From assembly GCA_016875635.1 (NCBI GenBank), contig VGPD01000007.1, forward strand, positions 902 to 64,901: DNA of 64,000 nucleotides. The letters are read 5' to 3'. Below the pieces are notes generated by a model that made no database searches, was not told the DNA's origin, and saw only the letters and a program-made list of their open reading frames with translations. Below, piece by piece: positions 22,124-26,906 of the stretch. The stretch's first letter is position 1; every line of letters starts with the position of its first letter. The stretch is from Chloroflexota bacterium. GTDB lineage: Bacteria; Chloroflexota; Dehalococcoidia; UBA2979. A program made the position numbers and the translations under genes.

Positions 22124-23971
22124 TTATTCGGTAGACGCGGCCCCCGCCCGTTGCTCCGCCAGCGCCTCCTCGGCGTCCGGGGCCAACCGGATGTGGACGT
22201 CGCGCAGCTGGCGCTCAGAGACCGGGGCGGGCGCTCCCGTCATCGGGTCACCAGCGGACTTCGTCTTCGGGAATGCGATGACCTCCCGGATGTCCCGCTC
22301 ACCGGCGAAAAGCGCGACGGTACGGTCGATGCCCGGAGCGATGCCGCCATGGGGCGGTGCGCCGTAGGAGAACGCCTCCAGCATGTGGCCGAACTTCAGC
22401 TTCGCCTCGTCCAGCGTCAGGCCGAGTGTCCGCAACACCGCGAGTTGCACTTCACGCGAATGGATACGGATCGAGCCGGAACCGATCTCCTGGCCGTTGC
22501 AGACGATGTCGTAGGCGTGCGACCGAACACTACCGGGATCGCGCTCCAGAAGGGGGATGTCGTCGGTGAACGGCGAGGTGAAGAGGTGGTGGACGGCGCT
22601 CCACTTCTCCTCGTCTGCATCCCACTCGAACGCCGGGAACTGCGTCACGAACAGGAAGGAGAGCGCCGCAGGGTCAGCAAGACCTCGCTGTTCCGCGACC
22701 GTCCGGCGCAGCAGGTCCAGCACCTTCGAGCTCAGCGCGTCCGGTCCTGCCGCGATGAGCAGCAGGTCGCCCCGGCGTGCCCCGCAGGCCTGGCCGAGGG
22801 CCGCCGCCTGCTCCGGCGTGAAGAATCGCGCCGCCGGCGACTTCACCTCGTCCGCGGTCAACCCGTCCAGCGGGCCCTCCCCGGCAAACTGGAACCAAAC
22901 GATCCCGGACGCACCGGCCGCCCGCGCCAACTCGACGTATTCGTCGAGTCCGCGACGGCCGACGTCCGCGCCGCTGGGCACGGCGAAACCGCGTACGCGC
23001 CCACCCGCTTCGATCGCCTGAGTGAACACACGGAATTCGGCGGTGCGGACGAGACCCGTGAGGTCATGGAGTTCGAGCCCGTACCGGAGGTCGGGCTTGT
23101 CGGAGCCATATCGCTCCATCACCTCCGCGAAGGTGAAACGAGGGAACCGCGCGGGGATCGTCCACTCCGGACGGACCTCCTCAGCCAGCCGGTGGTAGAG
23201 GTCTTCCGTGAGGTCGAGGATGTCCTCTTCCTCGACGAACGCCATCTCCACGTCCAACTGGGTGAACTCAGGCTGACGGTCGGCCCGGAGGTCCTCGTCG
23301 CGGTAGCAGCGCGCGATCTGGAAGTACTTGTCCACGCCGCCCACCATCAGCAGCTGCTTCCACTGTTGCGGGCTCTGCGGCAGTGCGTAGAACGAGCCGG
23401 GGTGCACACGGCTGGGCACGAGGTAGTCGCGCGCGCCCTCCGGTGTGGCGAGATTGAGGACGGGCGTCTCCACTTCGATGAAGCCGCGCTCGTCCATGAA
23501 GTCACGCATCAACTTCACCACACGGTGGCGCAGGCGCAAGTTCCCCGCCATCCGTTCGCGACGCAGGTCGAGGTAGCGGTAGCGCAGCCGCGTCACCTCG
23601 TCGACGTTGGTCTCCTGGTTGACCGGAAACGGCGGCGTCTCGGCGGCGTTGAGGATCTCCGCGGACGCGGCCAGCACTTCGATGGCGCCGGTGGACAGCT
23701 CCGGGTTTTCCGTACCCGCGCGGCGCGCGGTGACCTCACCATGGATGCCGAGCACGTATTCGTTCCGGACTTCCGCTGCCACCGCCGAGGCCGCAGGCTC
23801 CTGTTCCGGGTGGAACACAACCTGCACCAGCCCCGTGGAGTCGCGCAGGTCGAGGAAGATCAGACCACCGTGATCCCGCCGGCGATGCACCCATCCCGCG
23901 AGCGTCACTTGCTCGCCGGCGTGCTCCGCCCGCAGTTCACCGCATCCGTGGCTCTTCAACACCTCGTGCAC
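22124..23971 (-). CDS. aspS: aspartate--tRNA ligase
   Basis: OB-fold start GWVHRRRDHGGLIFLDLRD, class II motifs, GAD insertion. GTG start at 23971. Confidence 0.95.
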   Translation of the reverse strand: MHEVLKSHGCGELRAEHAGEQVTLAGWVHRRRDHGGLIFLDLRDSTGLVQVVFHPEQEPAASAVAAEVRNEYVLGIHGEVTARRAGTENPELSTGAIEVLAASAEILNAAETPPFPVNQETNVDEVTRLRYRYLDLRRERMAGNLRLRHRVVKLMRDFMDERGFIEVETPVLNLATPEGARDYLVPSRVHPGSFYALPQSPQQWKQLLMVGGVDKYFQIARCYRDEDLRADRQPEFTQLDVEMAFVEEEDILDLTEDLYHRLAEEVRPEWTIPARFPRFTFAEVMERYGSDKPDLRYGLELHDLTGLVRTAEFRVFTQAIEAGGRVRGFAVPSGADVGRRGLDEYVELARAAGASGIVWFQFAGEGPLDGLTADEVKSPAARFFTPEQAAALGQACGARRGDLLLIAAGPDALSSKVLDLLRRTVAEQRGLADPAALSFLFVTQFPAFEWDADEEKWSAVHHLFTSPFTDDIPLLERDPGSVRSHAYDIVCNGQEIGSGSIRIHSREVQLAVLRTLGLTLDEAKLKFGHMLEAFSYGAPPHGGIAPGIDRTVALFAGERDIREVIAFPKTKSAGDPMTGAPAPVSERQLRDVHIRLAPDAEEALAEQRAGAASTE

Positions 23972-24234
23972 CTCGCGGCTCGCGCCCCGGCGATCTGCCA
24001 GGGTGATCCGCCGCAGTGTCGCACGCTGCGCCGGGAGGTTCGAGGACAGGCACGTCGCTAGCTGTTTCCGAAGAATTGCTCGGGGGTGATCTCCAGCGCC
24101 ACCCGCTTCGCCTCATCCAGCTGCTTCGAAAGGGCCGCCAAGTCGGCGTCGGGGCGGGAGCGGATTGCCCATCGCGGCGCGGACCGAGGCGATCACGGCA
24201 TCCCGGGCCGGGCCACCGGGGATACCATCGACCG

Positions 24235-24453
24235 TCCTCCGAGTTCGGAGACAAGTACCCGGTCGCGGATGCCACGGTCGCGGTGGACAGCCTGAACGTC
24301 GATTGGGACGCGCAGGCCGTGAAGTCGGCGGCGTCGTACCTCAAACTCACGGGCTTCTCGTGCCAGGGACTCATCGATCAGCTCTCGTCGCAGCACGGCG
24401 AGAAGTTCACCGTGGCTCAGGCGAGGCACGGCGCCACGCAGGCTGGTTTATGA
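24235..24453 (+). pseudogene. 5'-truncated Ltp-family (host cell surface-exposed lipoprotein) fragment
   Basis: Only the last ~70 codons of ORF 24016..24453 have high GC3. They read ATVAVDSLNVDWDAQAVKSAASYLKLTGFSCQGLIDQLSSQHGEKFTVAQARHGATQAGL, a typical Ltp repeat. No signal peptide or lipobox upstream. Confidence 0.6.
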
Positions 24454-24605
24454 TGAGAGTCGCCCATTGACCGCCGCCGCCTTCCTCGCCTCGATCTTCC
24501 TCGGCTGGTTCATCCTCGGCGCCGCCGGCATGACCATGTGGATCAACCGACCGAAGCCACCACGCGGTGGCCATCGGATTCCTTCGGATCTGCGCCCCCT
24601 CGCAC

Positions 24606-24635
24606 TTGACACAGTCTATACGTATCGTATAGACT
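24606..24635 (+). promoter_or_regulatory. sigma-70-like promoter (TTGACA-16 nt-TATAGA) with embedded perfect inverted-repeat operator
   Basis: TTGACA at 24606-24611 and TATAGA at 24628-24633. Inverted repeat AGTCTATACG-TAT-CGTATAGACT at 24613-24635. ATG 24642 lies 8 nt after the -10, so the mRNA is probably leaderless. Confidence 0.6.
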
Positions 24636-24641
24636 CCGTGC

Positions 24642-25106
24642 ATGGAGATCAGGCTCACCGGACACGCAGACAGCCGCATGAACGACGCGGGCCTCACCCG
24701 CGAAGATGTAGTCTTCATCATTGAGTCGGGCTCGGTCGTCGAGCAGGGCGTCACGGCGTCCCTGCACGAAGCGACCGTCCGAGGTATCCCGTTCCGGGTG
24801 GTGGTGAAGCGAGACTCCGACCCACCGCTCGTGATCACCGTCTTCGAGGTGTACCGATTGAGGGAGACAACCATGCGTATCGAATACGACGGCGAGGCGG
24901 ACGTCCTCCTCGTGCACCTCGCAGAGAACCCCGGCCATACGCGGGGGAAGCAGATCGACGAGCGCCGGATCGTCCACTACGACGACAGCGACCGGCCCGT
25001 CGAGATCGAGCTGCTCTTCGCGTCCCAGGGCGTCGACGTCTCAGGACTCCCGGAGTCCGAGGCGCTCGCCGACCTGCTGCGGTCCTTCCCCCGCCTCGTC
25101 GCGTGA
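24642..25106 (+). CDS. fused DUF4258-like (toxin-like) / DUF2283-like (antitoxin-like) protein; internal start at 24873 could give a free DUF2283 module
   Basis: Residues 1-72 (RLTGHADSRMNDAGLTREDVVFIIESG...PPLVITVF) are DUF4258-like. Residues 78-154 (MRIEYDGEADVLLVHL...DRPVEIELLFAS) are DUF2283-like. No stop between them. SD GAGGGAG lies 6 nt before ATG 24873. Confidence 0.7.
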   Translation: MEIRLTGHADSRMNDAGLTREDVVFIIESGSVVEQGVTASLHEATVRGIPFRVVVKRDSDPPLVITVFEVYRLRETTMRIEYDGEADVLLVHLAENPGHTRGKQIDERRIVHYDDSDRPVEIELLFASQGVDVSGLPESEALADLLRSFPRLVA

Positions 25107-25315
25107 GTGGCGAGGATGTGTCCTCCTGGCTCCCGTCCGCCCGCGAGAGGCTCGGGCTGAGCCAGGCTGAGCTCGCCGACCGCCTCGGTGCCTCTGCGAA
25201 CACGGTCGCGCGGTGGGAGCGCGGGGAGTTGAAGGTGCGCCTGGCGCCGATGCTCCGGCTCGCCCTCGAGGCTCTCGCCCGGCCAGCGTCACGGGTGAGC
25301 CGGCCGCGCGGGTGA
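25103..25315 (+). CDS. XRE-family helix-turn-helix transcriptional regulator
   Basis: HTH LGLSQAELADRLGASANTVARWERGE. GTG start overlaps the upstream stop (GTGA). Confidence 0.8.
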   Translation: MSGEDVSSWLPSARERLGLSQAELADRLGASANTVARWERGELKVRLAPMLRLALEALARPASRVSRPRG

Positions 25316-25316
25316 C

Positions 25317-25367
25317 CGGCGGGAGCGGACCGGCGCGGCGGGGGTTGGCTGACCGGCGCTCCCGCCG
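25317..25367 (+). terminator. long GC-rich hairpin after the XRE gene (possible terminator, no U-tract)
   Basis: 11-bp arms CGGCGGGAGCG and CGCTCCCGCCG, immediately after the stop at 25315. Confidence 0.3.
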
Positions 25368-25424
25368 TCACCACCCACCCTTGCTCATCGAGGCCAGAGG
25401 TCTAAGGGGCAGATGGCGCGCGTA

Positions 25425-25874
25425 CTACCGCTTCGGATTCTTCAGCGTCTCGACCGTCGTCGTCGTCGGACGGCTTTTCGCTTCCTTCACGGCGATGAAC
25501 TCACCGTTCCTCGCGTCGCGGCCAATCTTTCGGATCCCAGGCATGTCACTGTCCTCTGCACTACGCGCTCGTTTCGGGCCGGGGTTGGACTCGGACGGAG
25601 CACATCCGCTCCGCCCGAGTCGCCCGGCTAGGCGGCCCGTCCCATAGATCACAAGCTGCTTCCGACCATCCGGGATCAGCAGCGCGACCTTTGGCTGACG
25701 GCGCGTGTTCGTCCACTTCGCCCGGTCGCTCGTGACCGAGATCAGGATGTGCGCGCGGTCGAAGCGATAGTTGACCATCGACAGTTGCGGAGAGCCATCC
25801 CGCTTGCCGGTGCCAAGCACCGCCAACTGGTGGCCCTCCAAGTACTGGCGCTGCTCATCGGTGAATTCCATCAC
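25425..25874 (-). pseudogene. chimeric ORF: N-terminal ~85 residues of a PPOX-class (pyridoxamine-phosphate-oxidase-like / F420-type split barrel) protein, continued in frame into an unrelated short basic module
   Basis: EFTDEQRQYLEGHQLAVLGTGKRDGSPQLSMVNYRF...VALLIPDGRKQLVIYG is PPOX-like, but the C-terminal half of the barrel is missing. The last 40 codons (ATG 25544, MPGIRKIGRDARNGEFIAVKEAKSRPTTTTVETLKNPKR) have high GC3 and look like an independent small gene. Confidence 0.5.
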
Positions 25875-25901
25875 GCCTCCTCAAGTCCCGGTCGAGTGAG
25901 G

Positions 25902-26906
25902 CTATCGCCCGAGGCGCAGCCGTCGCCATCCACCCCGCTGCGCCACGGTGCCGCCGAGGGCGGTCCCGAGACCGACCAGCGCCAGAATGATGATCGCCGC
26001 CATCGCACCTTCGAACGTCCGGAAGACGACGATGCCGATGTACTCGTACAGCGTGAGCGCCGCGAAGACGACGGCGACACGCTGCCGCGCCACGACCGCC
26101 GCGACGGCCAGCCAGACCGCGTACGCGAACAGCAACCCCTCGTACGCCCCGCCCTCGCCGATCGCGAGGACGACACCTGCCACATTCGCGACCGCCAGCG
26201 CACCGATCTGCCACCAGATGCGCGCGGTGCGATCCAGCCGAAGGGTGGCCTCCGTGAACGCGAGCGCGGCGAGCAGGAGGCCCAGCACCACCATCACCTG
26301 CGCTCCGGCCGTCCCCGGTCCTTCGCTTCTGGCGTCGCCCATCCACCAGCCGAAGACACCACCACCCCAGGCGATCGCGACGGGGACGCCGAGCGCGGCG
26401 AGCGGCGCCGGGAGGCTTCGAGCAGCGGCGTAGCCGGCGACCGCACCGACGGCCGAGGTGAGGAAGAAGGCCGTCCGCATCTCGGCCGGCGTCGAGTCGT
26501 CGCCCAGCCAGCCAACCGCGCTACTGGCCTGCAGCGAGGCCGCGTACCAGAGGACGGCAGCGCTGAACCCCAGCGCGTCCGCCGCCGCCGTCCCCCCCGC
26601 CTTCGCAAGCAGCCACGCCAGCGCCGTCCAGCCAGCCGCAACGGCCACCATCACCCCGAACCGTGACCAGCCGGACATGCCATCGAGCACGGTGAAGTAG
26701 ATGCCGAAGACGGCGCCGAGGGCGACGAGCGAACAGGCGTACTGGAGCAGAACGCCACCGCTCAGGCCTCGCGCGGCCGGGACCGGGGCCAGCGAATCGA
26801 TCCCCTCGTGCGCGGCGATCGCGCCAGCCTGCTCGGCCGAGATCAGGCCGGCTTCAGCCCAGCGGTCCAGCGAATCCACGAGGTCGCGCTCATCGAGGTG
26901 GCCCAT
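25902..26906 (-). CDS. DUF2157-like polytopic membrane protein
   Basis: N-terminal soluble segment LDRWAEAGLISAEQAGAIAAHEG followed by about 9 TM helices. Confidence 0.65.
   Translation of the reverse strand: MGHLDERDLVDSLDRWAEAGLISAEQAGAIAAHEGIDSLAPVPAARGLSGGVLLQYACSLVALGAVFGIYFTVLDGMSGWSRFGVMVAVAAGWTALAWLLAKAGGTAAADALGFSAAVLWYAASLQASSAVGWLGDDSTPAEMRTAFFLTSAVGAVAGYAAARSLPAPLAALGVPVAIAWGGGVFGWWMGDARSEGPGTAGAQVMVVLGLLLAALAFTEATLRLDRTARIWWQIGALAVANVAGVVLAIGEGGAYEGLLFAYAVWLAVAAVVARQRVAVVFAALTLYEYIGIVVFRTFEGAMAAIIILALVGLGTALGGTVAQRGGWRRLRLGR

Follow-up and report, generated by a model that had tools for sequence, protein, structure and literature searches.

Proteins of the families DUF4258 and DUF2283 are normally encoded by two small adjacent genes, which have been suspected of forming a toxin-antitoxin (TA) pair. 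In a 64,000-nucleotide (nt) stretch of a Dehalococcoidia genome (Chloroflexota bacterium, assembly GCA_016875635.1, contig VGPD01000007.1, positions 902 to 64,901; hereafter the window), the two run together in one open reading frame (ORF) that lies between a promoter and a gene for an XRE-family helix-turn-helix protein. The locus raises the question of whether this fusion is a working single-chain TA system, one lesion among others in a decaying locus, or an accident that an otherwise ordinary cassette tolerates. We favor the last of these and give it a probability of about 0.6: a horizontally acquired three-module cassette resembling a type II TA system, organized as a repressed leaderless operon, in which a young and nearly neutral loss of a stop codon has joined the first two genes. 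The features of the cassette, all within the window, are:

24606..24635, plus strand: sigma-70-type promoter found by consensus scan, TTGACA at 24606-24611, 18 nt, TAGACT at 24630-24635.
24613..24635, no strand: candidate operator, read from the sequence, a perfect inverted repeat AGTCTATACG-TAT-CGTATAGACT with arms of 10+10 nt.
24642..25106, plus strand: fused ORF DUF4258-LRETT-DUF2283 (ORF and Pfam scan).
24642..24857, plus strand: toxin-like module, codons 1-72, DUF4258, predicted RelE-like BECR fold (PF14076, E 2.4e-9).
24858..24872, plus strand: linker of 5 codons, TTG AGG GAG ACA ACC, including the Shine-Dalgarno (SD) sequence GAGGGAG at 24860-24866 (junction alignment with orthologues L047 and L003).
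24873..25106, plus strand: antitoxin-like module, DUF2283, with its own SD and ATG retained (PF10049, E 4.5e-7).
25103..25315, plus strand: XRE-family helix-turn-helix gene, 70 amino acids (aa), candidate repressor, coupled through GTGA (HTH_3, E 2.5e-9).

A fused frame and its split orthologues

A preliminary description of the locus, made from the sequence and its ORFs, had reported a single frame through both modules with no stop. This was borne out, as the sequence and the ORF list give one uninterrupted frame of 154 codons at 24642..25106 on the plus strand. The two family assignments also held, both halves passing the curated Pfam thresholds and giving the same families when scanned separately. 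DUF4258 (PF14076) matched residues 5-69 with 36.0 bits against a gathering cut-off of 25, covering profile positions 1-71 of 71, while DUF2283 (PF10049, YuzE-like) matched residues 79-128 over profile positions 1-49 of 49; its score was 28.5 bits within the fusion and 30.4 bits when the module was scanned by itself, the cut-off being 23. No model in an NCBIfam scan matched either half of the ORF. The 154-aa ORF holds a toxin-like and an antitoxin-like domain without interruption, the arrangement by which a fused mono-gene TA module is recognized.

The closest orthologue of the cassette, locus L047 (Logan SRR14825527), matches window 24468-25287 at 81% nucleotide identity. A second, L003/L006, lies on a 7,781-bp contig of a Dehalococcoidia metagenome-assembled genome (MAG) that has been deposited as both JBINOK010000507.1 and JBFWQJ010000140.1. 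In L047 and L003 the three modules likewise follow one another as toxin, antitoxin, and XRE protein, but each has a gene of its own. The toxin module of the window shares 81% amino-acid identity with the free-standing 72-aa gene product of L047 and 57% with P0010 of L003; its antitoxin module is 87% identical to the free-standing P0172 (L047 antitoxin, 87%) and 68% identical to P0003. The split cassettes share with the window the module order, a promoter of the form TTGACA-17/18-TAGNNT-6-ATG, the palindrome, and an XRE gene coupled to the end of DUF2283. They differ in that their toxin genes have a TAG stop and a spacer of 11-13 nt where the window has TTG and an in-frame spacer. The surroundings of L003 look prophage-like, with an amidase gene and many small genes.

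The junctions of the three loci, from the end of the toxin to the start of the antitoxin, read:

L047: TAC CGA TAG tggagcagacc ATG
L003: TAC CGC TAG gagggcaccgccc ATG
Window: TAC CGA TTG AGG GAG ACA ACC ATG

In L047 and L003, TAG closes the toxin frame after codon 72 and the 11-13-nt spacer comes next; codon 73 of the window, TTG (24858-24860), occupies the position of that stop. The junction of the fused allele is CGATTGAGG, and the unfused alternatives would be CGATGAGG or CGATAG. Judged from this alignment, the LRETT linker consists of the old stop codon and the intergenic spacer that once followed it, SD included. The preliminary description had also pointed to an internal ATG at 24873 with the SD GAGGGAG at 6-nt spacing, and these turn out to be the start signals of the ancestral antitoxin gene. 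Two routes to the fused allele appear possible. One T inserted into an ancestral CGA TGA followed by 11 nt and ATG, the geometry of L047, would join the frames in one step; alternatively, TAG could have become TTG together with the gain or loss of 1 nt in the spacer. Because one or two mutations suffice, selection need not be invoked to explain the fusion.

So small a difference could also be an artefact of sequencing or assembly, a spurious T at 24858/24859 making two separate genes look like one. One extra T within a TT dinucleotide would suffice, and the toxin gene of another locus, L005, does show obvious frameshift-type errors. We nevertheless consider an artefact very improbable, because the identical 154-aa protein and 100% identical DNA are found in two further assemblies, L001 and L002 (Logan SRR7990526 and JGI 3300020193), which were built separately from the source contig. 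Furthermore, homopolymer errors are not to be expected at a run of just two Ts, and a TAG ancestor, as in both orthologues, would require two changes rather than one.

In the reading that we favor, then, the ancestor would have had three separate genes as L047 and L003 do, and this lineage would have lost the stop of the toxin gene, so that the frames joined. The DUF4258 protein, with its predicted RelE-like BECR fold, is presumed to be a ribonuclease toxin, the DUF2283 protein is presumed to bind and neutralize it, and the 70-aa XRE protein is presumed to be the repressor. Every toxin molecule would now be made already tethered to its neutralizer through LRETT, and the old SD and ATG inside the ORF should still give extra free DUF2283 protein. 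The fusion would be tolerated because the toxin remains neutralized in cis or in trans, and it is probably a young stop-loss allele that is neutral or nearly so.

Rarity of the fusion and condition of its modules

We surveyed relatives of both modules. A word-indexed homologue search with the fusion as query returned the fusion protein alone. A HMMER scan of 1.84 billion representative proteins (E up to 0.001) gave 183 hits, nearly all of which were free-standing DUF2283 proteins of ~75-85 aa that aligned from query residue 78; the remainder were free-standing DUF4258 proteins of ~72 aa matching query residues 1-72. A genome scan that used a 5-sequence alignment found 41 loci, the closest in Dehalococcoidia and the others in candidate-phyla bacteria and DPANN archaea, and a metagenome scan found 14 more. 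We fetched 66 loci and scanned their stop-to-stop ORFs with hidden Markov models built from our own alignments. Both DUF4258 and DUF2283 were present in 39 of the 66. In most of the loci with both, which span Chloroflexota, candidate-phyla bacteria, and DPANN archaea, DUF4258 was directly upstream of DUF2283, and the gap between the genes was -4 to +20 nt in 12 measured pairs. Conserved adjacency and co-orientation across distant genomes, as used to recognize type II TA systems, are thus found for DUF4258 and DUF2283. The claim that the two modules normally occupy adjacent genes was upheld, with a stop between the genes in all 12 measured pairs and no other fetched locus carrying both modules intact in one frame. 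The preliminary description had proposed a survey of homologous loci for that stop; it is the norm, and the fused copies of the window are the exception.

Among the fetched loci, ORFs with both domains were limited to the window's own copies and the group of P0152. P0152 (137 aa; 5 low-GC contigs from several ENA samples, L049-L052) has a 1-nt frameshift inside the toxin and Tyr in place of His8, and the true C-terminus of its toxin, YIKIITCYFLK followed by a stop, lies in the +1 frame. A fusion allele with a broken toxin is evidently able to persist in a population. P0004 (134 aa, locus L068) has only the first ~45 toxin residues left, the C-terminal half being missing; by eye, its locus (about 600-1224 of L068) lies directly upstream of an apparent tRNA gene cluster. 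Since the toxins of both P0152 and P0004 are broken, fusion in this family tends to go with decay. No second fusion with two intact domains was found in the HMMER scan or in a word-indexed profile search of a 5.8-billion-protein collection. The window fusion is the sole one found with two intact domains and is apparently a one-off. The survey also returned P0002, a protein of 3,152 aa in which 9 separate stretches match the DUF2283 module and which looks like a giant tandem DUF2283-like repeat protein.

AlphaFold2, run on a block alignment, modeled the fusion as two confident domains connected by a low-confidence linker, with a mean predicted local distance difference test (pLDDT) score of 93.3 and a predicted template-modeling (pTM) score of 0.58. 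In the toxin domain two helices precede four strands; pLDDT is > 95 over residues 1-70, and all secondary-structure elements are intact. In Foldseek it matched HigB2 (5ja8, probability 0.99), a contact-dependent inhibition entry (7m5f, 1.0), and the RelE entries 2khe, 9g12, 3bpq, and 3g5o (0.69-0.87). The predicted fold of the N-terminal domain thus resembles RelE-type BECR toxins, though at weak E-values, and PMC11980606 likewise assigns DUF4258 to the RelE/ParE superfamily of BECR folds. Profile searches against PDB sequences gave spurious hits only (dephospho-CoA kinase, designed repeat proteins). The DUF2283 module alone was modeled as five strands and a C-terminal helix with pLDDT 92, and comparison of this model with solved structures gave nothing convincing, the best match being the integrative model entry 9a77 (GATB-YTPR) at E 0.06. 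A MAFFT alignment with a shared EYD...RG...R.V pattern had suggested that the C-terminal half of DUF4258 is related to DUF2283, an idea we dropped when profile-profile comparison gave a probability of 0.2% over one aligned column.

Several of these results weigh against the reading that we favor. The fused allele comes from one clonal population, the three assemblies being 100% identical over up to 3.9 kb and not independent lineages. The packing of the two domains against each other is not confident in the AlphaFold2 model (pTM 0.58), and the Foldseek matches to BECR folds are weak, with E-values of 0.06-0.7 and target-normalized template-modeling scores of 0.39-0.50. The other fusions found, P0152 and P0004, both carry damaged toxins. 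In comparison with L047, the ratio of nonsynonymous to synonymous substitution rates (dN/dS) is 0.53 for DUF4258, higher than the 0.12 of DUF2283 and the 0.105 of XRE, and the window toxin has His at position 42, where L047 and L003 retain the Tyr that is near-invariant in the close clade. Finally, we found no functional study of DUF4258 or DUF2283 in the literature, and the DUF4258 family is termed undescribed in PMC11980606.

The toxin dN/dS and the loss of Tyr42 suggest that the toxin may already be weakened. They raise the possibility of a decaying locus, in which a toxin already inactive or weakened, for example by the change of Tyr42 to His, acquired the stop loss as a further neutral lesion and the fusion has no role. 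The clearly degenerate P0152 and P0004 would fit such a history, as would the age of the DNA insertion that carries the cassette (described below), which is old enough for the remnant of the gene it interrupted to have become frameshifted. We regard this explanation as possible but doubtful. The secondary-structure elements of the toxin and its family-invariant His8 are intact. The derived changes in the toxin, counted by eye from the sequences with L003 as outgroup, split about evenly, 4 in the window and 3 in L047, so the raised dN/dS is not specific to the fused allele. There is clear purifying selection on DUF2283 and XRE, which is sensible only if something still needs neutralizing and repressing, and the promoter and candidate operator are perfect.

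A third explanation gives the fusion a function. CapRelSJ46 is reportedly a single polypeptide whose N-terminal toxin domain is auto-inhibited in cis by its C-terminal antitoxin domain. The window ORF has the same arrangement, toxin N-terminal and antitoxin C-terminal in one chain. A selected and working fusion would keep the toxin tethered, adjust an excess of free neutralizer through the internal start, and free the toxin by cleavage of LRETT, degradation of DUF2283, or displacement by a phage protein; we consider this unlikely. A CapRel-like form of the idea, in which the tether itself was selected as a switch fired by proteolysis of the linker or of DUF2283 or by a phage protein that displaces DUF2283, with free DUF2283 setting the threshold, likewise seems improbable. 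Both domains are intact, the linker is short, and the internal SD and ATG are retained. There are also precedents for functional fused TA systems in phage defense, namely CapRelSJ46, a fused toxSAS toxin-antitoxin phage sensor (PMC9712102), and the 195 catalogued BECR-fold TA fusions, including 17 of DUF4258 with MqsA (Gerdes, mBio 2025, PMC11980606), and the DNA insertion that carries the cassette holds a domain of the Ltp (superinfection-exclusion) type as well. However, nothing specific supports the CapRel-like reading. The allele is a singleton across the 1.84-billion and 5.8-billion-protein searches, its closest orthologue is unfused, one or two mutations create it without any need for selection, PADLOC gives no match to the fusion protein, and the Ltp ORF looks truncated. 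CapRelSJ46 itself is unlike the window protein in having a RelA/SpoT-type pyrophosphokinase toxin, where the fold here is BECR RNase-like, and CapRel fusions are widespread and conserved whereas the fusion in the window is a singleton. If the selected single-chain reading were true, the locus would be a natural intermediate between two-gene TA systems and CapRel-type fused sensors.

Promoter, candidate operator, and XRE gene

The preliminary description had placed a TTGACA-16-TATAGA promoter 8 nt ahead of the ATG at 24642 and had concluded that the transcript is leaderless. The TTGACA and the leaderless geometry stood, but for the -10 element TAGACT is the better reading, spaced 18 nt from TTGACA and 6 nt from the ATG. 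The TATAGA reading is less consistent because in L047 and L003 it would leave a spacer of 15 nt, where TAG(ACT/TAT) gives 17; the promoters of both orthologues read TTGACA-17-TAG(ACT/TAT)-6-ATG, and both keep the palindrome core. A promoter scan of 23900-26000 found TTGACA-18-TAGACT as the sole promoter-like site, with 0.1 expected in those 2.1 kb. Because the last T of the -10 element lies 6 nt ahead of ATG 24642 and there is no SD, the sequence implies a leaderless transcript that would start at or next to the A of this ATG. A leaderless mRNA is recognized by a -10 element about 6-7 nt ahead of the start codon; the same spacing of 6 nt is found in L047 and L003, and a similar one, by eye, in L068 and L067.

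It had also been claimed that a perfect palindrome overlaps the promoter. The inverted repeat is exact at 24613-24635, where it overlaps the promoter spacer and the -10 element. Perfect palindromes with 10-nt arms and short spacers are not rare in themselves, with 4 hits at 3 sites in the 64 kb against ~1.5 hits expected. The 17-nt core of this one, CTATACGNNNCGTATAG, is however unique in the window even at 2 mismatches, with 0.01 expected. The core CTATACG-N3-CGTATAG is conserved in the orthologues; among the 66 fetched loci, all 7 that have an XRE gene contain it exactly, and the remaining 59 lack it. From this strict co-occurrence, the best available evidence on the point, XRE is most likely the protein that reads the palindrome. 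We had considered an RNA hairpin and dropped it, since transcription is predicted to start downstream of the palindrome, which is better taken as a DNA site; an Rfam scan of 23900-25900 gave no hits. The start of the DUF2283 module at 24873-24888 (ATGCGTATCGAATACG) is identical at 12 of 14 positions to part of the operator. It contains a small palindrome of its own, CGTAT-CGA-ATACG, with the half-sites in reverse order, which is kept partly in L047 and is absent from L003; this palindrome is probably a by-product of the MRIEY codons, given that incomplete conservation. A lower G+C content than in the flanks had been noted as well. It is there but mild, 0.61-0.63 at 24500-24900 against 0.68 for the whole window.

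The XRE protein matched HTH_3 (PF01381) with 37.5 bits against a gathering cut-off of 23 and, more weakly, the helix-turn-helix models of the MqsA and Y4mF antitoxins. Its start, GTG at 25103, overlaps the TGA of the fusion (25104-25106) as GTGA, and this coupling, which had been reported before, proved to be conserved in L047; in L047 and L003 alike, the XRE orthologue has its start within the DUF2283 gene or at its end. All three XRE proteins, those of the window, L047, and L003, share the recognition-helix region NT[VI]ARWERGEL. Under the reading that we favor, transcription from TTGACA-18-TAGACT would begin on or beside the A of ATG 24642 and give a leaderless mRNA of the operon, and a dimer of the XRE protein, alone or with DUF2283, would most likely shut off the promoter by binding the palindrome over its spacer and -10 element.

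Elsewhere the DUF2283 module is joined to its other neighbor. In P0148, at locus L067, DUF2283 is fused to an XRE helix-turn-helix, and a DUF4258 gene overlooked by the gene caller lies directly upstream; in P0141 and L022, by eye, DUF2283 is fused to another type of helix-turn-helix. These fusions fit DUF2283 and XRE as the two halves of a classical antitoxin and, more generally, would fit a scheme of three units, toxin, neutralizer, and DNA binder, in which different lineages fuse different neighbors. Public gene calls miss XRE in L047 (5231-5440) and DUF4258 in L067 (1757-1987), calling antisense ORFs instead. Because gene calls miss members in this way, annotation-based surveys would under-count these cassettes in high-GC genomes.

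Known systems and genomic context

Three-component TA systems with a separate repressor are known in omega-epsilon-zeta and paaR2-paaA2-parE2, where the order is repressor, antitoxin, toxin. The window cassette resembles them in that neutralization and DNA binding would be divided between two small proteins, and autoregulation through the promoter-operator would be expected here. It differs from them in its order of toxin, antitoxin, repressor and in its families. MqsA combines a toxin-binding zinc domain and a helix-turn-helix in one protein. With MqsR-MqsA the cassette shares a toxin that comes first and is predicted to have a BECR fold, and an XRE-type helix-turn-helix that recognizes a promoter palindrome (here a candidate), the XRE protein matching MqsA models weakly. 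In contrast to that system, DUF2283 takes the place of the zinc domain here and has, in this lineage, been joined to the toxin.

Fused "mono-gene modules" arise sporadically from bicistronic ancestors (PMC11980606). The window ORF is like them in having a toxin-like domain, predicted to belong to the RelE/ParE superfamily, and an antitoxin-like domain in one ORF, in that order. It is unlike them in its partner, DUF2283 rather than MqsA, HigA, or BrnA, a pairing missing from Table 2 of PMC11980606; furthermore, a third gene encodes the helix-turn-helix, and the internal start signals survive. The DUF4258-DUF2283 fusion is an addition to a documented kind of fused TA gene and should not surprise specialists. 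In literature mentioning DUF4258 or DUF2283, we found no description of a toxin/antitoxin/repressor cassette with a conserved operator. The preliminary description had stated that neither family has an established mechanism; we likewise found no functional study, although DUF4258 now has a superfamily home (PMC11980606). Its suggestion that the fused version is a useful handle on the two families holds, as there is a natural fused and split pair; fused TA genes as such have already been catalogued (PMC11980606).

The window locus and L047 provide fused and split versions of the same cassette for two widespread, unstudied families, and this pair could be used to test whether DUF2283 neutralizes DUF4258 and what effect a covalent tether has. 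Toxin, neutralizer, and DNA-binding repressor would be three separable units, the first two fused here and the last two in L067 and L022, and the conserved pairing of palindrome and XRE gene offers a ready-made candidate operator and repressor. The general biological lesson is modest, because fused TA genes are well documented and this is a singleton allele that one mutation can create.

The cassette lies within a lineage-specific insertion. The features of the insertion and its edges are:

24236..25636, no strand: 1.4-kb insertion with the whole cassette, splitting a PNPOx-family gene after ...VIYGT (blastn against L069).
24235->24059, minus strand: 3' remnant of the PNPOx gene, frameshifted (alignment with sister genome).
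25637-25871, minus strand: 5' part of the PNPOx gene, reading into insert DNA to give a 148-aa chimeric ORF that ends at 25425 (alignment with sister genome).
24235..24453, plus strand: ORF with an Ltp-type (superinfection-exclusion lipoprotein) domain, looks 5'-truncated (PF07553, E 4.7e-19; PHROG superinfection-exclusion families, E 1e-25).
24467..24610, plus strand, frame open to 24724: small hydrophobic ORF (TAAAFLASIFLGWFILGAAGMTMW...) just upstream of the promoter (tblastx against L047).
25425..25544, minus strand: small convergent ORF (MPGIRKIGRDARNGEF...; MPGIRKIGRDARNGEFIAVKEAKSRPTTTTVETLKNPKR) downstream of XRE, with an L047 homologue and in frame with the truncated PNPOx gene.
25588-25621, no strand: hairpin GACTCGGACGGAGC-ACATCC-GCTCCGCCCGAGTC near the right end of the insertion, read from the sequence, with 14-nt arms that are 93% complementary.

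In blastn against the sister genome L069, collinear blocks stop at window 24235 and resume at 25637. Three sister genomes, whose aspartyl-tRNA synthetases (AspRS) are 94-95% identical to that of the window, have DUF2157, an intact 135-aa PNPOx gene, and aspS in this order, the last two directly adjacent and with no cassette; one NCBI Dehalococcoidia MAG has an AspRS that shares 95% identity with the window AspRS. Because the 1.4-kb insertion carries the cassette and the three sisters are without it, a horizontal or lineage-specific acquisition is indicated. Each end of the insertion bears a copy of CCGTCC(T/C), which makes an imperfect direct repeat; the corresponding site of the sisters holds just one CCGTGCC. 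A search of the ends for terminal inverted repeats was negative, and the 1.4 kb contains no recombinase gene. Searches of INPHARED phages, PLSDB plasmids, and IMG/VR turned up no relatives, so a phage or plasmid origin is not supported.

The Ltp-type ORF (PHROG 15667) starts exactly at the left edge of the insertion, apparently without its N-terminal signal/lipobox part. For this reason, it may be what is left of a larger element, possibly one derived from a prophage. The hydrophobic ORF, which may be a fourth gene and has no Pfam hit, is 60% identical over 48 residues to its L047 counterpart (L047 4597-4760). Its stop in L047 is a TAG inside the palindrome, and a 1-nt difference in the window lets the frame run on into the toxin gene. 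The convergent ORF at 25425..25544 has no Pfam hit either. The hairpin at 25588-25621 could be a terminator or a recombination site.

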